Source: Gammaproteobacteria bacterium
Lineage (GTDB): Bacteria > Pseudomonadota > Gammaproteobacteria > Natronospirales > JAJUFS01
Assembly: GCA_033720815.1 (NCBI GenBank)
Contig: JAWWBT010000002.1
Coordinates: forward strand, 1 to 50,226
Reading direction: 5' to 3'
Length of the DNA stretch: 50,226 nucleotides
The translations under genes were made by a program, and so were the position numbers. Positions 5,876 through 31,396 of the stretch are shown here, in pieces; within the stretch, counting starts at the first letter, position 1; each line of letters begins with the position of its first letter. The notes below the pieces were generated by a model. It made no database searches and was not told the DNA's origin. It saw nothing but the letters and a program-made list of their open reading frames with translations.

Positions 5876-7039
5876 TCAAAGGCGGTAGCGGTAGACCAGC
5901 GCAGCCGGCTGGGAGAAATCCATGCCTTCCATGCTGGCGATATCGCCGAGCGAAATCGTCGCAGTGGACGTTTCCCGCAACGGTTCGAGCATCCGGCCCA
6001 GGGCGATTGCCTTTTCGAGCGCTTCACGGCTTCCCCGCAGGTTCACCGAAAGGTGGATGCGATCACTGGCGACACGTGTTACCTGGACTGACTCCACGGC
6101 ACTGAGGCCGCCGATGTAGTCGACCACGGTGGCGTAGCCGTCGAGGCTGGAGAGGTCTCGAATCTCCATGTCGACAGTGTTCCCGGCAAGACTGAAGCCC
6201 CCACCATTCGCGGCCACCGCAAATTCGCGGGCATAGGTTTCTGCCAGCGTATCGACCAGCGCAGAAACGGCCGATTCCAGCGTTTTACCCTGGAGTTCCC
6301 AGCGCTGGCTGGTTTCTCCCTCACGCAGCAATGTGCCACGCAGGGCCCAGCTCGAATTGTTCGCCGGCCAGGCACTGACAACGAGCGTGGCATTCGGATC
6401 GTATCGATCTGCCGCAGCAAGCAGCGGCTCCTCGAAGACTCCCCAGATATCCATCACCGCAATACGACCGCTGTCCTCGCCATCCATTGCGGGCAGCATG
6501 AGCGGGACGCCACGGCGCTGTCCGGCCTGTTCCCAGGCCTGAGCGAGGCCGTGATCCCGACCAATGACGTTGCGACCGGCACGCGGATCATCAACCGCCA
6601 TCAACACCAGCGTTCGCGGCCGTTCGCGGCCCCACACGGGCAAACCGTAGCTCCGCAGGCGACGTTCGAGTGCGTCGACGTCGAAGGTGGCATGGAGCAC
6701 CAGTTGCCGGGTTTCGACGGGCTCGACACGAAGGCCGGAGGCCGCTTCCGGTGTGGCCAGGACGGTGCGATTCTCGTAGCGGAAGCGCTGCACGTACCGC
6801 GCAGGACTGCGGAGCAGCTCGTCCGAGGCACTGCTCTCGAGCACCTCGGCGCTGCCTGACAGCCGCACCAGGATTTCGCCCAGCGCGGTTTCCATTGCTG
6901 CCTGGCGTTCACTGGTGGACTGGTCTTCCACCGGCACCGTGACCTCGGCGAGACCCGCCAGGCTGGCGGCATGCAAGGGCAATGCCGTGGCCAGGCTGGC
7001 CAACAGCAACGACATGAAGGCGCGACGGGTTGCGCTCAC
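5876..7039 (-). CDS. DUF2066-like secreted protein
   Basis: Signal peptide RRAFMSLLLASLATALPLHAAS; sits between hda and purM where DUF2066 genes are conserved; GTG 7039 preceded by GGAGGA SD (ORF track extends to 7108). Confidence 0.65.
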   Translation of the reverse strand: MSATRRAFMSLLLASLATALPLHAASLAGLAEVTVPVEDQSTSERQAAMETALGEILVRLSGSAEVLESSASDELLRSPARYVQRFRYENRTVLATPEAASGLRVEPVETRQLVLHATFDVDALERRLRSYGLPVWGRERPRTLVLMAVDDPRAGRNVIGRDHGLAQAWEQAGQRRGVPLMLPAMDGEDSGRIAVMDIWGVFEEPLLAAADRYDPNATLVVSAWPANNSSWALRGTLLREGETSQRWELQGKTLESAVSALVDTLAETYAREFAVAANGGGFSLAGNTVDMEIRDLSSLDGYATVVDYIGGLSAVESVQVTRVASDRIHLSVNLRGSREALEKAIALGRMLEPLRETSTATISLGDIASMEGMDFSQPAALVYRYRL

Positions 7040-19589: not shown

Positions 19590-20243
19590 ATGAACAAGGA
19601 TAAACGCGTCGAAATATTCCGTCGCCTGCGCGATGCAAACCCGGAACCCACCACCGAACTGGAATACGACTCGCCCTTCGAGCTGCTGGTCGCCGTAACG
19701 CTGTCTGCCCAGGCCACCGATGTGGGCGTGAACAAGGCAACGAAAAAGCTCTTTCCCGTCGCGAATACTCCACAAGCCATTCACGACCTGGGTGTCGATG
19801 GCCTGAAGAAGTACATCAAGACCATTGGCCTCTATAACTCCAAGGCGGAAAACATCATCAAGGCCTGCCGCATCCTGCTCGACAAGCATGACGGCAAGGT
19901 GCCGGAGGATCGTGAATCGCTGGAAGAACTACCGGGTGTCGGACGCAAGACGGCGAACGTGATCCTGAATACCGCCTTTGGACACCCCACCATTGCCGTG
20001 GACACTCACATCTTCCGCGTCTCGAATCGCACGAAGATCGCCCCAGGCAAGAATGTGGTCGAGGTCGAAAAGCGGCTTGAACGCGTGGTGCCGGAAGAAT
20101 TCAAGAAGGACGCACACCACTGGCTGATCCTGCACGGTCGCTACGTGTGCAAGGCGCGCAAGCCGGAATGCTGGCGTTGCCCGATTGCCGACCTTTGCGA
20201 ATTCCCGAAGTCAAAACGACCGGAAGCACCCGACTCTCGCTGA
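19590..20243 (+). CDS. nth: endonuclease III
   Basis: FELLVAVTLSAQATD, LPGVGRKTANVILN (HhH-GPD), C-terminal CxxxxxxCxxCxxxxxC; follows rnfE as in E. coli. Confidence 0.95.
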   Translation: MNKDKRVEIFRRLRDANPEPTTELEYDSPFELLVAVTLSAQATDVGVNKATKKLFPVANTPQAIHDLGVDGLKKYIKTIGLYNSKAENIIKACRILLDKHDGKVPEDRESLEELPGVGRKTANVILNTAFGHPTIAVDTHIFRVSNRTKIAPGKNVVEVEKRLERVVPEEFKKDAHHWLILHGRYVCKARKPECWRCPIADLCEFPKSKRPEAPDSR

Positions 20244-26682: not shown

Positions 26683-27024
26683 CTACCTCTCTTCCTCGTT
26701 TCGTCGTGACTCGCGACGATCTTCCTCGCGACGTGCTTCCTGGCGTTCGCGTTTTTCCTCACGCTCGTCTTCGCGAGCCCGCGCCATTTCGGCATCGACA
26801 TTCAGCAGCGCCCGGTCCTTGGGCCGCAGCATCGCAACACGCACTTCATCGACGACACAGAGACGAGGCTGCACATCGAGATCAAGCATCTCCTGGACCT
26901 TGCGTTCCTCTTCATCAAGGTCGAGCAGTTCACGGTACAGGCGACGTCGTACCCAGGCCGGCATGTCGCGGGTTTCATGGTGATACCGCGCGTGATCGAA
27001 CAGTCCTCGCAACAGGCGCTTCAT
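26683..27024 (-). CDS. hypothetical 113-aa protein with Glu/Arg-rich C-terminal tail
   Basis: ATGA overlap with the upstream gene stop; ends AREDEREEKRERQEARREEDRRESRRNEEER; no family recognised. Confidence 0.5.
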   Translation of the reverse strand: MKRLLRGLFDHARYHHETRDMPAWVRRRLYRELLDLDEEERKVQEMLDLDVQPRLCVVDEVRVAMLRPKDRALLNVDAEMARAREDEREEKRERQEARREEDRRESRRNEEER

Positions 27025-27545
27025 GCCAGGCCTCCCTGGAACGGCAACAGCACCAGCGCAATCATGATCAATGCAAGACCGAGAATGATCAGGTGCAGGC
27101 CACGCGTACGGTCACGAGCTGCCTGCTCGTTCGAGGCGAAATAACGCCGGTAGATGATGTCGTAGGAACCGCACAGCGCATCCTGCAACTGCTGGGTGAC
27201 ACGTTCCTCGGAGTCATCCTGTTTGCGCGCCTGCTGCTCGATATTCACCAGCTCCTGCAAGTCGGGAGGGTCTATGTAGATCACGTTCTTTTCCATGCGC
27301 ACGATGAACAACGCGCCCGCCAGCAGGGCGAGCACGGCGGCGCCGGCCAGCAGCATGACCGTACCGGTAACCGGTTCCTGCCACAGCGTGACATCGACGC
27401 GCCCGGTGACCATCGACAGCGTATAGGCGGCAAACGCCAGGCCGGCCACCGGCGTGGCAACACTGTTGCGGATTTCCTCACGGCGATCGCGCTGCGACTG
27501 GTAGCGCTCGCGCATTGCCTCGAAGCGCAGCTCGGAAGGCGTCAT
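27021..27545 (-). CDS. hypothetical 174-aa membrane protein (three predicted TM helices)
   Basis: AGAGGA SD before ATG 27545; charged N-terminus MTPSELRFEAMRERYQSQRDRREEIR, hydrophobic runs VAGLAFAAYTLSMV, VMLLAGAAVLALLAGALFIV, LHLIILGLALIMIALVLLPF; the ORF-track 302-aa version is a 5-prime extension. Confidence 0.55.
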   Translation of the reverse strand: MTPSELRFEAMRERYQSQRDRREEIRNSVATPVAGLAFAAYTLSMVTGRVDVTLWQEPVTGTVMLLAGAAVLALLAGALFIVRMEKNVIYIDPPDLQELVNIEQQARKQDDSEERVTQQLQDALCGSYDIIYRRYFASNEQAARDRTRGLHLIILGLALIMIALVLLPFQGGLA

Positions 27546-27696
27546 TTGAATCCTCTGTGAAGGCCCATTCTTGTTGTAACGCAGTGAAAAGCCCGTCTTC
27601 AAACGGAAAACCGTGAAATATTCGGCGGCATGCCGGGTCTGAATCCCTGAAGGTGAGGCCTTATACTGTCGGTCCATCCACGAGGCAGCCGATTTC

Positions 27697-28131
27697 ATGC
27701 TTTTCAGTGACAACCGACAGGACCTGCGCCGCATGTTCATCGAGGTGTGGCAGAAGGTCGAGCAGCGCAAGCCGCTGACCCAGCTCGAAGATCTCATCGC
27801 GGGCGTGATCCAGGAGCATCCCGAGTACCATGCGACGCTATCGGAGGGCGAAGCGGTGCTGGATCGCGACTGGACGCCGGAGCACGGCGAGACCAACCCG
27901 TTCCTGCACATGAGCATGCATATCGCCATTCGCGAGCAGCTCAGTATCGACCGGCCACCCGGCGTGCGCGCCGCTCACCAGGCGCTGGGCGAGAAACTCG
28001 GCGATGCGCATGCTGCAGAGCACCTGATGCAGGAAGCGCTTGCCGAGACGCTCTGGGAAGCCCAGCGCAGCGGCATTCCGCCGGATGAACAGCGCTACCT
28101 GCAGCGCGTGAGAGAGATGGCGCAGAAATAG
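27697..28131 (+). CDS. DUF1841-like protein (144 aa, no Cys, 8 His, no signal peptide)
   Basis: MLFSDNRQDLRRMFIEVWQK...NPFLHMSMHIAIREQL pattern that I recognise as DUF1841; followed 3-45 nt later by the DUF692 gene. Confidence 0.7.
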   Translation: MLFSDNRQDLRRMFIEVWQKVEQRKPLTQLEDLIAGVIQEHPEYHATLSEGEAVLDRDWTPEHGETNPFLHMSMHIAIREQLSIDRPPGVRAAHQALGEKLGDAHAAEHLMQEALAETLWEAQRSGIPPDEQRYLQRVREMAQK

Positions 28132-28176
28132 CGTATGCCATCGGCCATACTGGAAGCATTACTACGCGGAGGAGCC

Positions 28177-29034
28177 ATGCAGCAGCAGAAACGTTACCCG
28201 GTGGAAGGCGCAGGCCTGGGGCTGCGGCGCGGCAAGCTGATGCGCGAGCTTGAGGAAAACCCGCCTGCACAGGTGGATTTTCTCGAAGTCGCCCCCGAAA
28301 ACTGGATGCGCATGGGTGGCAAGCTCGGCAAGCGATTCCGCGCCTTCACCGAGAAATATCCGTTCGTCTGCCATGGCCTGTCGCTTTCGATCGGCAGCCC
28401 GGCACCGCTGGACGAGGACTACGTGCGCGAAGTGGGCAATTTTCTCGACACCCACGGAATCCGCTATTACACCGAACATCTCTCGTACTGCTCGGACGAC
28501 GGCCACCTCTACGACCTGATGCCGATACCGTTCACCGAAGCAGCGGCAGACTATGTCGCCGAACGCATTGCTCGCGTACAGGACATCCTCGGTCGGCGCA
28601 TCGGCATGGAAAACGTTTCCTATTACGCCGCGCCCGGCCAGGAAATGACGGAAATCGACTTCATCAACCACGTGCTCGAAAAGGCCGACTGCGACCTACT
28701 GCTCGACGTGAACAACATCGTCGTCAACAGCATCAACCATCGCTACGACACCGAAGCCTTCCTGAAGGCACTGCCCGCCGAGCGTGTCGTCTATTTCCAC
28801 GTTGCCGGCCATTACGTGGAAGCCGAAGACCTGCGCGTCGATACGCATGGCAGCGACGTCGCCGACCCTGTGTGGTCACTGCTTGATACCGCTTACGCCC
28901 ACTTCGGGCCGGTTCCCACCCTGCTCGAACGCGATTTCAATATCCCGCCGCTGGCGGAATTGCTTGGTGAAGTGGATCGCATCCATTCCCTGCAGGCGCG
29001 GCATGAGTCAGCGGAGGTTGCCGCCAATGGCTAA
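28177..29034 (+). CDS. MNIO (multinuclear non-heme iron oxidase) / DUF692 family, bufferin-HvfB-like RiPP maturase
   Basis: DUF692 blocks FLEVAPENW, VCHGLSLSIG, YTEHLSY, GMENVSYY, LLLDVNN, YFHVAGH, RVDTHGS, LLERDFN; GGAGGA SD before ATG 28177 (in-frame ATG 28135 also possible). Confidence 0.9.
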   Translation: MQQQKRYPVEGAGLGLRRGKLMRELEENPPAQVDFLEVAPENWMRMGGKLGKRFRAFTEKYPFVCHGLSLSIGSPAPLDEDYVREVGNFLDTHGIRYYTEHLSYCSDDGHLYDLMPIPFTEAAADYVAERIARVQDILGRRIGMENVSYYAAPGQEMTEIDFINHVLEKADCDLLLDVNNIVVNSINHRYDTEAFLKALPAERVVYFHVAGHYVEAEDLRVDTHGSDVADPVWSLLDTAYAHFGPVPTLLERDFNIPPLAELLGEVDRIHSLQARHESAEVAANG

Positions 29035-29806
29035 GCACGACCAGGCCATGCAGGATTTCCGCCGCCAGCAATACACCTTTGCGGCTCACCTGCGGAACCC
29101 GGACACGAATCCGGCACCTGAAGGCATCGAAGAGCGTCGCCTGCAGATCTACCGAGACCTGTTCTTCAATAACGTGAAGAACCTGCTGGCCAGCACCTTT
29201 CCCGTTCTCTCCGAAATTCTCGGTGAGGAGCGATGGGCAATTTTGACCCGCGAGTTCTATCACCATCACATTTCGCATACGCCGCTGTTCATGGAAATCC
29301 CGCAGGAATTCCTGCACTGGATGAACGAGGAAATGCGCGAACCGGAACGCTGGCCGGCCTTCATGCCCGAGCTCGCACATTATGAATGGGTTGAGCTGGC
29401 ATTAATGACGGACACCACCGACATTGATGCGGTCGATCATGACCCTGAGGGAAATATTCTTGACGGCATACCGGTCATCTCCCCTGTAGCGTGGCCCCTG
29501 GCCTACAGCTACCCGGTACACCGCATAAGCCGCGACTTCCAGCCGGAAGCTCCCGGCGAACAACCGACATTCATCGTCGTCTATCGCAAGCGCGATGACG
29601 AAGTCGGTTTCACGGAAATCAATGCGGTGACTGCACGGCTACTTGAGCTGATGCAGGACAACGAAACGGCAACCGGAACCGAACTGCTTCGACAGGTGGC
29701 GAGCGAACTCGGCCACACTGATCCTGAAGTCGTGATTCGTGGCGGTGCCGACATTATCCGTGGGCTTGCGCAACAGGACATCCTGCTCGGCGTCAAGCCC
29801 CGGTAA
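29027..29806 (+). CDS. DUF2063 protein (HvfC/BufC-like MNIO partner)
   Basis: FRRQQYTFAAHLRNPD...RLQIYRDLFFNNVKNLLASTFPVL...HTPLFMEIPQEFLHWM typical DUF2063 N-domain; 8-nt overlap with the DUF692 gene; start trimmed from ORF 28784. Confidence 0.8.
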   Translation: MAKHDQAMQDFRRQQYTFAAHLRNPDTNPAPEGIEERRLQIYRDLFFNNVKNLLASTFPVLSEILGEERWAILTREFYHHHISHTPLFMEIPQEFLHWMNEEMREPERWPAFMPELAHYEWVELALMTDTTDIDAVDHDPEGNILDGIPVISPVAWPLAYSYPVHRISRDFQPEAPGEQPTFIVVYRKRDDEVGFTEINAVTARLLELMQDNETATGTELLRQVASELGHTDPEVVIRGGADIIRGLAQQDILLGVKPR

Positions 29807-29848
29807 CAGGCAGGCTCTAAATACATCCAGCCTAACGGGGAGATTCAC

Positions 29849-30442
29849 ATGATCGGCATTCTCAATCGTGCGCAGGACTGGCTTGATACAACCGGCAAGG
29901 CCGATTTCCTTGGCCCGCTTGCGCTCCGCCTCTACCTAGTACCCGTATTCTGGGTGGCCGGCATGAACAAGGTTACCGGCTTCGACAATGTCGTTACCTG
30001 GTTTGGCAATGCCGAATGGGGCCTGGGCCTGCCCTTCCCGACCGTCATGGTGGCACTGGCCATCTTTGCCGAAGTCGGTGGTGCGATCGCGCTGCTGCTT
30101 GGTTTCGCTACCCGCTGGATGACGATTCCCTTGATGATCACCATGCTGGTCGCGATATTCCAGGTGCACTGGAAGAACGGCTGGCAGGCGATTGCCGATC
30201 CGCAGAGCGCGTTTCCGCCTGAAGACATCGAAGGCACGATGGAGCGGCTTTCCGCAGCGAAGGAGATCCTTCGTGAGCACGGCAATTACAGTTGGCTCAC
30301 CGAAAACGGCAATTTCGTGATTTCGAATAACGGGATCGAATTCGGCGTGACCTACTTCGTAATGCTGCTCGCCCTGTTCTTCATCGGCGGTGGCCGTTAC
30401 GTCAGTGCGGATTACTGGATAGCGAAGAAATTCCGCCGCTGA
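29849..30442 (+). CDS. DoxX-family membrane protein with periplasmic insertion (HvfX-like)
   Basis: LRLYLVPVFWVAGMNK, AIFAEVGGAIALLLGFATRW, HWKNGW, HGNYSWLTENG...NGIEFGVTYFVMLLALFFIGGGRY. Confidence 0.8.
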   Translation: MIGILNRAQDWLDTTGKADFLGPLALRLYLVPVFWVAGMNKVTGFDNVVTWFGNAEWGLGLPFPTVMVALAIFAEVGGAIALLLGFATRWMTIPLMITMLVAIFQVHWKNGWQAIADPQSAFPPEDIEGTMERLSAAKEILREHGNYSWLTENGNFVISNNGIEFGVTYFVMLLALFFIGGGRYVSADYWIAKKFRR

Positions 30443-30464
30443 CCGGAAATCATGAATACAGGAA

Positions 30465-30487
30465 AGCCCCGCGTTGCGGGGCTTTTT
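30465..30487 (+). terminator. rho-independent terminator ending the DUF1841-MNIO-DUF2063-DoxX operon
   Basis: AGCCCCGC-gtt-GCGGGGCT-tttt, 23 nt after the doxX-like stop. Confidence 0.9.
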
Positions 30488-30499
30488 CGTGCCGGAGAT

Positions 30500-30877
30500 T
30501 CAGGTTTCCAGCTGGCGCTCTTCCATCAAAGCAAATGCATTGCCTTCCGTATCGCGATAGAACGCCAGCCACAATGCAGTATTTCCCTGGCGATGAACCT
30601 CCTGCGGCGCCTCGAGCACCGTGACCTCCTTTGCTTCGAACACCGCATGCGCCGAGTCGATATCGCCGACACGATAATAGAGAATCGAACTGCCGTGTTC
30701 CGCCTCGCCGCCCTTCGGACCAATGGCAAGACGAGCCCCGCCAAGATCGAAGAAGCTCATGCCTCCACCTTCGAAGAGATGCGCCAGGCCGACGACATCG
30801 CGATAGAACATCGTCGCGCGAGAAACATCATCAGCAGTTAGTGACACCTGCCCAAGCCCCTGCACATCGACACCCAT
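30500..30877 (-). CDS. VOC / glyoxalase-bleomycin resistance family protein
   Basis: LGQVSLTADDVSRATMFYRDVVGL...FYRDTEGNAFALME; AGGAGA SD before ATG 30877. Confidence 0.75.
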   Translation of the reverse strand: MGVDVQGLGQVSLTADDVSRATMFYRDVVGLAHLFEGGGMSFFDLGGARLAIGPKGGEAEHGSSILYYRVGDIDSAHAVFEAKEVTVLEAPQEVHRQGNTALWLAFYRDTEGNAFALMEERQLET

Positions 30878-30918
30878 TATCTTCTCCTGGCGGAAATTCA
30901 GCATTAATTGTAGGCAAT

Positions 30919-30942
30919 AAAAAAGCCCGCCGAGTGGCGGGC
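30919..30942 (-). terminator. rho-independent terminator after the thioesterase gene
   Basis: aaaaaa-GCCCGCC-gagt-GGCGGGC; T6 follows the stem on the minus strand. Confidence 0.85.
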
Positions 30943-30949
30943 CTGTCAT

Positions 30950-31396
30950 TCACTTATTCTTGCCGGGAATCATCTTGAAATCATCCGAGTGATCCAGCGC
31001 TTCGAAGGTATCGACCAGCTCCTGTGGCGGCGGCGTGATCTTGCGCGCTCGCGTGTCCAGCCACGCGCCGTCCATGTCGAGAATTGCGCACAACTCATCG
31101 CCACGATAGATTTCGTGGCGCATGCTCCACTTGCGGTGATCTTCCGACACGCCAGTAAGCAGCACGTTGATAGTGACCTCGTCGCTCATCTTCAATTCAC
31201 GCAGGAACTTGCATTCTTCGCGGAACAGCACCGGGCCGACACCATTCTTCATCATCCACTCGATGCCGAAACCATGCTTCTGCAGGTAGGCGACACGCGC
31301 CTGCGCACCGTAATCGTAATACGCCGAGTGGCGCACGTGGCCGTTCGGGTCAAGGTCGGCCCAGCGAACCACCACATCCTGGGTAAATGCCGTCAC
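30950..31396 (-). CDS. hotdog-fold acyl-CoA thioesterase (4HBT/YbgC-like)
   Basis: VVRWADLDPNGHVRHSAYYDYGAQARVAYL typical catalytic-Asp region. Confidence 0.8.
   Translation of the reverse strand: MTAFTQDVVVRWADLDPNGHVRHSAYYDYGAQARVAYLQKHGFGIEWMMKNGVGPVLFREECKFLRELKMSDEVTINVLLTGVSEDHRKWSMRHEIYRGDELCAILDMDGAWLDTRARKITPPPQELVDTFEALDHSDDFKMIPGKNK

Follow-up and report, generated by a model that had tools for sequence, protein, structure and literature searches.

The DNA analysed here (the window) is a 50,226-nt stretch, positions 1-50,226 of contig JAWWBT010000002.1, from a gammaproteobacterial metagenome lineage. Its plus strand carries, in one direction, a DUF1841 gene followed by hvfB, hvfC and hvfX, which encode a multinuclear non-haem iron oxidase (MNIO), its partner protein and a membrane protein (Table 1); 45 nt separate the DUF1841 gene from hvfB, hvfB and hvfC overlap by 8 nt, and 42 nt lie between hvfC and hvfX. 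The locus is an intact, evolutionarily maintained Hvf-type HvfB-HvfC-HvfX maturation cassette without a precursor gene in cis. An earlier note, made from the sequence alone, had recognised the four genes; their coordinates were borne out, as were, by Pfam and NCBIfam, their identities. It had also placed the DUF1841 gene in the slot of the missing precursor and suggested that its product might be a new kind of MNIO substrate, a view for the most part not supported by the comparison with related loci described below.

Against curated models the open reading frames (ORFs) of hvfB, hvfC and hvfX are full length. The MNIO matches the HvfB model NF003818 at equivalog level over its full length, and the Pfam model that it matches is MbnB_TglH_ChrH. 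With the BufB model NF050167 it reaches 264.6 bits, under the cut-off of 310, and so does not qualify as a BufB equivalog; the DUF2282 precursor of bufferin Buf1 loci is likewise absent. What defines an Hvf (oxazolin) locus is otherwise in place, namely an HvfB-family MNIO, the conserved residue set, an adjoining HvfC and an HvfX in the cluster, and only the adjoining HvfA precursor with its Sec signal and EGKCG repeats is missing. The window HvfB retains all 95 columns that are invariant across 34 HvfB-type sequences (itself among them), in agreement with the earlier description of an intact MNIO, and H66, H101, E145, D177, N179, H208, D222, H224 and E251 are invariant in 36 of 36 aligned MNIOs, two Buf1-type enzymes included. 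This His/Asp/Glu/Asn set, the putative ligands of the metal site, has the spacing of the MbnB ligand pattern. We placed the hvfB start at 28177 because a GGAGGAG ribosome-binding site lies just upstream and homologues have their N-termini at the equivalent MQ..YPV; on the same grounds the ATG at 28135 was rejected. A soluble insertion in HvfX, singled out by the earlier note, is indeed present but is not special, since the NF050144 match runs contiguously over residues 20-191 and the insertion is thus a normal feature of the family.

Table 1. Features of the hvf locus in the window
Feature	Position	Strand	Details
Promoter-like bipartite motif	27613-27642	+	GTGAAATATT-N13-GGTCTGA, ~55 nt 5' of the DUF1841 start codon
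DUF1841 gene	27697-28131	+	144 aa; PF08897, E=2.9e-56; first gene of the apparent operon
hvfB, MNIO of the HvfB family	28177-29034	+	NF003818, 435.7 bits (cut-off 360); PF05114, E=5.9e-104
hvfC, DUF2063/RRE-type partner protein	29027-29806	+	NF050145, 316 bits (cut-off 142); PF09836 and PF22106 (NGO1945_C)
hvfX, DoxX-family membrane protein, Hvf type	29849-30442	+	NF050144, 242 bits (cut-off 80); PF07681
Intrinsic terminator hairpin	30463-30487	both directions	AAAGCCCCGC-GUU-GCGGGGCUUUUU, A-tract and T-tract at the flanks

The terminator is as strong as had been claimed, its 71-nt context folding at -31.4 kcal/mol (z=-4.3 against shuffles), and it closes both the hvf unit and a convergent glyoxalase gene. 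A simple terminator scan did not pick up this hairpin, a sigma-70 promoter scan found no site within 27000-31000, and the window holds neither an Rfam family nor a tRNA.

That the 50 kb contain no precursor gene, as the earlier note had stated, was confirmed by several kinds of search. A six-frame motif scan of the window found no EGKCG-like motif cluster, and a heuristic for Sec-like, Cys-containing ORFs of at least 22 aa returned none in the window outside obvious coding or antisense frames. An HvfA hidden Markov model (HMM), which we built from eight precursors of related loci, gave a best E of 2 in the window, compared with E=1e-27 to 1e-53 at every hvfA-positive locus, and neither a small DUF2282 HMM nor tblastn produced a match in the window. 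The 45-nt gap between the DUF1841 gene and hvfB holds no ORF. We also considered a 41-codon ORF in an alternative frame (27653-27778) that overlaps the DUF1841 start and contains four Cys, and judged it spurious; it encodes no signal peptide, its Cys are not conserved, and in relatives the frame is interrupted, by in-frame stops in L001 and, in L011, by an in-frame stop codon with which the corresponding stretch opens.

The position of the missing gene becomes apparent from related loci, which show three main architectures. In the first (type A: L007, L008, L010 from Thiogranum longum, L020, L035, L068, L088, L092, L213 and L221, with a variant order in L217-220), hvfA is present and the genes run rnf-nth-DUF1841-hvfA-hvfB-hvfC-hvfX; a copA-type ATPase gene often comes next. 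The HvfB proteins of type A are 73-76% identical to that of the window, and the ORFs between the DUF1841 gene and hvfB encode canonical HvfA proteins, with a Sec signal, an NPFxMxxLxxGYM core and EGKCG repeats, which pass the NCBIfam HvfA-family domain model; the repeats in these relatives of the window are 17 residues long and contain two EGKCG motifs each. Because HvfA sits between DUF1841 and hvfB in these loci, the DUF1841 gene lies upstream of the precursor slot and not in it, as the earlier note had supposed, and it comes to lie next to hvfB only in the absence of hvfA.

The other two architectures lack hvfA. In the Woeseiaceae type (type B) the order is nth-DUF1841-hvfB-hvfC-hvfX, with 60-220 nt and no ORF between DUF1841 and hvfB; it was found in ten GTDB species genomes, from Woeseiaceae and unclassified Gammaproteobacteria, and on at least 11 metagenome contigs. 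In the window type (type C: window/L222, L001, L011, L012 and L216) the DUF1841 gene is followed after 25-45 nt by hvfBCX, and about 7 kb of other genes lie between nth and DUF1841. In the window itself this distance is about 7.4 kb, counted from nth (19590-20243), and is filled by GNAT, M28, PEGA, tag and M14 genes and two unknowns. Across the hvfA-less loci, with 7-10 kb inspected on either side of each, we found no HvfA-like or conserved Sec/Cys ORF.

Further loci depart from these three architectures. In L003-L006 (P0005 lineage, closely related) DUF1841 is retained at 72% identity within the shared M28 / 4HBT_2 / DUF3187 / PDH synteny, and there is no cassette; L135 has nth-hvfA-hvfBCX without DUF1841. 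In two gammaproteobacterial metagenome-assembled genomes (L015:1362-1909 and L019:7012-7578) the DUF1841 gene is followed by a DUF2282 (BufA1) gene and then by an MNIO that is 37-38% identical to the window HvfB, which places a second MNIO family at the same address; L015 is the sole locus with a confirmed DUF2282 (Pfam E=4e-20). The idea, derived from L003-L006, that the cassette was inserted beside DUF1841 only in the window lineage was dropped, as many diverged loci show the same adjacency. As to the surroundings of type A cassettes, a heavy-metal (HMA) P-type ATPase gene lies downstream of hvfX in L007, L008, L010 and L221, which fits a role in copper handling; the window holds no copper-handling or extracytoplasmic function (ECF) sigma gene among its Pfam-scanned ORFs (most of the 50 kb). 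The variant order in L217-L220:6001-11484 is DUF1841, hvfA, a Glu_synthase-domain gene, hvfX, hvfB, hvfC, a gene for a 192-209-aa protein of unknown function and a thioredoxin-fold redoxin gene.

In a neighbour-joining tree of 36 MNIOs the hvfA-less cassettes fall in two clades, type C being sister to the hvfA-positive clade and type B forming a separate and larger one. Within type C, where dS is about 0.7-1.2, the pairwise ratios of nonsynonymous to synonymous substitution rates (dN/dS) are 0.06 for hvfB, 0.11-0.12 for hvfC and 0.04-0.06 for hvfX; those of type B are similar, and an hvfA-positive pair gave 0.06, 0.16 and 0.07, respectively. For the DUF1841 gene, comparison of the window with L001 and L011 yielded 0.04-0.07. 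Strong purifying selection acts on hvfB, hvfC and hvfX in each of the two hvfA-less clades, and the hvfA-less arrangement has been kept in at least 26 loci. These cassettes are not decay products, which is a new finding.

Bipartite promoter-like motifs accompany the cassettes and differ in where they stand. Every type B gap has a copy of TGTAATAWW-N14-GGTCTRA, which in some loci overlaps the DUF1841 stop codon; it stands between DUF1841 and hvfB in L021, L043, L050, L053, L058, L077, L080, L083 and L086, and a subset of L113-L202 has it too. The form GTAATA-N17-GTCTRA occurs nine times in the 1.24 Mb of collected loci, 9/9 at the type B spot, and a metagenome scan with TGTAATAAW-N14-GGTCTRA alone recovered at least 11 further type B loci together with the hvfA-positive L135. 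TGTAATAWW-N14-GGTCTRA precedes bufA1 of L015 as well and is confined, within the 1.24 Mb, to these hvf/buf loci; type A hvfA genes are preceded by related bipartite motifs, either GGAAAC/GAACTT...GGTCGTA or GTGAAATTT/CTGAAATCTT...GGTCT. In type C the motif, GTGAAATATYC-N11-GGGTCTGA, stands 5' of DUF1841 instead; it is conserved in window/L222, L001, L011 and L216, the upstream regions of which are otherwise divergent, and L012 is the sole type C member with a variant. It occurs once in the window, and this copy (Table 1) resembles the motifs 5' of hvfA in L035 and L068 and those 5' of type B hvfB.

The layout of these motifs resembles that of ECF-sigma promoters, and an alternative sigma factor or regulator probably uses TGTAATAWW-N14-GGTCTRA as its promoter. 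Judged by its position, the regulated unit of type B would be hvfBCX alone, without DUF1841 or a precursor, and the arrangement in type C suggests that DUF1841 is the first gene of the regulated unit, a DUF1841-hvfBCX operon. Between the type C motif and the DUF1841 start lies an octamer, TTATACTG (27672-27679), that the window shares with L001, L011 and L216 as a conserved sequence. As its spacing from GGTCTGA varies, it looks like a separate element.

How closely DUF1841 is tied to MNIO clusters was assessed in 80 species-representative genomes encoding DUF1841, a tblastn survey that is independent of the DUF1841 HMM and includes Burkholderiales, Rhodocyclaceae, Competibacteraceae, Steroidobacteraceae and Woeseiaceae. 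The survey loci are L013-L092, with DUF1841 at about position 7001 in most. The gene nth, which encodes endonuclease III and closes the rnf cluster, lies upstream of DUF1841 on the same strand in 76/80 of these beta- and gammaproteobacterial genomes; the aligned ends of the two are at most 200 nt apart in 55 genomes, with a gap of often 0-30 nt or an overlap. An MNIO gene lies within 2.5 kb downstream of DUF1841 in 17 of 78 assessable genomes, in the survey sample only in gammaproteobacteria. Of these 17, ten have no precursor, five have HvfA and two have a DUF2282 gene. The earlier note had named a lack of such conservation beyond the window genome as a refutation of its proposal; the adjacency does recur, and on this count the proposal is not refuted. 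The same survey tempers it, since 61 of the 78 have no MNIO nearby. DUF1841 is a conserved 5' neighbour of hvf clusters, with or without hvfA, and is much more widely the partner of nth; by these gene orders it is primarily the gene that follows nth, with the hvf/buf cluster an occasional occupant of the next position.

The DUF1841 protein itself aligns with PF08897 over residues 6-139 (model positions 1-134 of 135) and has, as described before, 0 Cys, 8 His and no signal peptide: the Cys of homologues are not conserved, and the N-terminus, MLFSDNRQDLRR..., is hydrophilic and fails the signal-peptide heuristic, the protein being predicted to be cytoplasmic. None of the marks of a precursor is found in it, be it target Cys, a Sec signal or an occurrence tied to MNIOs. 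About 7,000 homologues were found, the best 120 listed having about 56-88% identity with the window protein. H41-P-E-Y44, N67-P-F-L-H71, H75, E80-Q81 and E108-H109 are invariant, which makes a metal site plausible, and the sequence is conserved alike next to hvfA, next to hvfBCX or next to neither. An AlphaFold2 (AF2) model (m7d61d26a9468; predicted local distance difference test score 88.6) is all helical; Foldseek against the PDB gave a best E of 3.6 and a profile search of PDB sequences nothing meaningful, so that the modelled fold may be uncharacterised. A literature search found no mention of DUF1841. One rearrangement at its edge can be followed within a single sample: over positions 4940-12858 of L007 and L008, hvfA-hvfBCX-copA-tal are 98-100% identical and DUF1841 only 86-92%, and the homology ends about 55 nt 5' of DUF1841, beyond which one contig has rnf-nth and the other an acetyltransferase gene. 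The pair is mosaic, and the breakpoint of the rearrangement falls at the 5' edge of DUF1841.

Taken together, these observations lead us to favour, with a probability of roughly 55%, an Hvf-type (oxazolin/bufferin-like) hvfBCX cassette from which the cis-encoded hvfA is missing, whose precursor is encoded in trans and with which DUF1841 is co-transcribed without being its substrate. The arrangement in related gammaproteobacteria is rnf-nth-DUF1841-(promoter)-hvfA-hvfB-hvfC-hvfX(-copA), with DUF1841 a resident gene at the 5' edge, tied mainly to nth and brought up against hvfB by the absence of hvfA. We infer at least two losses of hvfA from this position; the enzymes would persist because their substrate, in the simplest case an HvfA-type peptide, is encoded elsewhere. 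HvfB together with HvfC would convert Cys of a Sec-exported precursor of the EGKCG type (or another Cys-containing one) to copper-binding heterocycles, and in the window clade DUF1841 and hvfBCX would be transcribed together, from the upstream element at 27613-27642 to the terminator. It is most likely that the substrate is encoded in trans. The earlier note had called this unusual, which is an overstatement: stand-alone Buf_EGKCG precursor genes are documented, as are genomes with several precursors yet one MNIO pair, and about 4,000 MNIOs of the mega-cluster have no recognised adjacent precursor (PMC12452194).

Several points weigh against this explanation. None of the hvfA-less genomes yielded a trans-encoded precursor within 7-10 kb to either side of each locus, nor did the 50-kb window, and among the matches listed from the metagenome scan with the promoter motif there was no stand-alone hvfA, most of these matches being low-GC chance ones. 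The MNIO tree is a neighbour-joining tree without bootstrap support, and dS is near saturation (~1). In addition, DUF1841 remains with hvf after the linkage to nth has been broken, in the window clade and in L008, and the window clade has an hvf-type promoter-like motif 5' of DUF1841; purely passive synteny predicts neither. Pairing the contigs of HvfA homologues with hvfA-less contigs by length gave a sole match (13,123 bp), which proved coincidental, two different contigs being involved, and the HvfA homologues that were looked up again each lie directly after rnf-nth-DUF1841.

The persistence of DUF1841 with hvf and the place of the motif are points on which an accessory role of DUF1841 draws. 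Here DUF1841 would serve Hvf/Buf MNIO systems in iron or metal handling, redox sensing or regulation, co-regulated with them and not their substrate, which is compatible with a precursor in trans. We regard this as somewhat unlikely. In its favour, the MNIO clusters that have DUF1841 directly 5' of them come in three gene orders and represent two MNIO families (Hvf, and Buf1 with DUF2282 in L015 and L019), and the adjacency has outlasted two independent rearrangements that split DUF1841 from nth. In the window clade the short gap to hvfB contains no terminator, and the invariant His/Glu set suggests a metal site. On the other hand, the genomes in which DUF1841 has no adjacent MNIO include all sampled Burkholderiales and Rhodocyclaceae, DUF1841 is kept at 72% identity where the cassette is absent, L135 manages with nth-hvfA-hvfBCX and no DUF1841, and the type B motif lies 3' of DUF1841, which would leave it outside the regulated unit. 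Moreover, HvfA of non-typeable Haemophilus influenzae (NTHi) is fully modified in E. coli by HvfB and HvfC alone (PMC11252979), and no structural homologue points to a role for DUF1841.

A bolder form of the same idea, which we consider rather unlikely, makes DUF1841 an unrecognised component of Hvf/Buf systems, either a His/Glu metalloprotein of the cytoplasm that, for the multi-iron enzyme, delivers or senses metal or redox state, or a regulatory partner, and has the hvfA-less DUF1841-HvfBCX set act on targets other than a dedicated cis precursor. Were DUF1841 a genuine component, a redox/repair module, rnf-nth, would be tied to copper-peptide biosynthesis.

It is also conceivable, though unlikely, that hvfA-less HvfBCX acts on another class of targets, such as other secreted Cys proteins, or has a role independent of any dedicated precursor. 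Two old clades retain the cassette without a cis precursor, many mega-cluster MNIOs have no assignable precursor (Antoine et al., PMC12452194), and the motif scan brought up, among the matches listed, no co-regulated stand-alone hvfA; this negative result is weak, as it covers only those matches. Against a change of target class stand the retention of every invariant HvfB column and the high identity to canonical HvfB, and no candidate target was identified.

The most novel option of the earlier note, that DUF1841 is a new, Cys-free protein substrate of HvfB and HvfC, now seems highly improbable to us. In its favour, the gene immediately precedes hvfB within one apparent operon, and MNIOs that act on Asp, Asn or Phe do exist (PMC12452194). 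However, the window HvfB is an HvfB at equivalog level, 73-76% identical to enzymes paired with the canonical Cys-rich HvfA, and DUF2063-type partners correlate with precursors that carry a Sec signal (PMC12452194), whereas DUF1841 has neither Cys nor a signal peptide. It is, besides, a well-folded 144-aa helical protein in the AF2 model, and its presence and degree of conservation are the same whether hvfA accompanies it, is absent, or no MNIO is there at all. Its link to nth in 76/80 genomes, the 61/78 genomes without an MNIO and the cassette-free L003-L006 also count against this reading. Lastly, a decaying remnant left after deletion of hvfA would account for the absent precursor but is effectively refuted by the full-length hvfBCX ORFs, by dN/dS of 0.04-0.12 in several lineages and by the retention of the arrangement in so many loci.

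In its enzymes the cassette that we take to work on a precursor in trans is a familiar one. HvfB, HvfC and HvfX belong, at equivalog level, to the families of the hvf (oxazolin) operon of NTHi (Manley et al. 2024, PMC11252979). Cys is the target of HvfB there, and by analogy the expected chemistry would be a four-electron oxidation of Cys in EGKCG repeats that yields copper-binding heterocycles (PMC11252979). Unlike the NTHi operon, which has the order hvfX-hvfA-hvfB-hvfC, the window lacks hvfA, has the order B-C-X and carries DUF1841 directly upstream, apparently in the same transcription unit. The core module of MNIO, DUF2063 protein and DoxX protein is shared with the Buf_EGKCG/oxazolin and bufferin (Buf1/Buf2) biosynthetic gene clusters (Antoine et al. 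2025, PMC12452194; Leprevost et al. 2024, PMC11626156), and the relatives of the window have the described Buf_EGKCG precursor type with its 17-residue repeats. In the survey of these clusters the order precursor-MNIO-partner is strictly conserved, whereas the window has no precursor, and DUF1841 is not mentioned in its text or in the parts of its supplement available to us (PMC12452194). The window cassette falls among the mega-cluster MNIOs without a recognised adjacent precursor; unlike that undivided group, the cassettes described here form two conserved, selected clades, with a fixed address downstream of nth-DUF1841 and a specific promoter-like motif. The locus is an interesting variant, not a new kind of system or new chemistry. 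Prochlorosins offer a precedent for the proposed logic, as precursors of this class of RiPPs (peptides made by the ribosome and modified after translation) are encoded away from the gene of their enzyme, ProcM; here, unlike there, no distant precursor was identified.

MNIO/bufferin-type clusters are among the largest RiPP enzyme families, yet for nearly a third of the enzymes no substrate has been assigned. Some of these enzymes belong to precursor-less cassettes that are conserved, under selection and fixed in their address downstream of rnf-nth-DUF1841, in one clade with a diagnostic promoter-like motif. The present locus is a clean and testable case, and the missing substrates can be searched for as hvfA-like genes, or genes with the same motif, in the same genomes. 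The analysis also provides a first genomic context for DUF1841, a family without literature or structural homologue, and corrects a tempting misreading: a gene in the upstream slot need not be the substrate.

Around the hvf locus, two overlapping genes of unknown function on the minus strand (26683-27024 and 27021-27554) are divergent from DUF1841 and encode products of 113 aa and 177 aa, the former rich in Arg and Glu, the latter with predicted membrane helices. Neither product has a Pfam or NCBIfam match, and the gene pair is kept in L001, L011, L216 and L222. A suspected frameshift in rnfD was rejected as an artefact of crude gene calling, the ORF being intact. Finally, positions 18177-39034 of the window align with ENA ERZ28654253 scaffold_114 (65.6 kb, SAMN30677861) at 99.75% identity over 20.9 kb, with 53 mismatches and no gaps, and this scaffold runs about 22 kb past the left end of the window.

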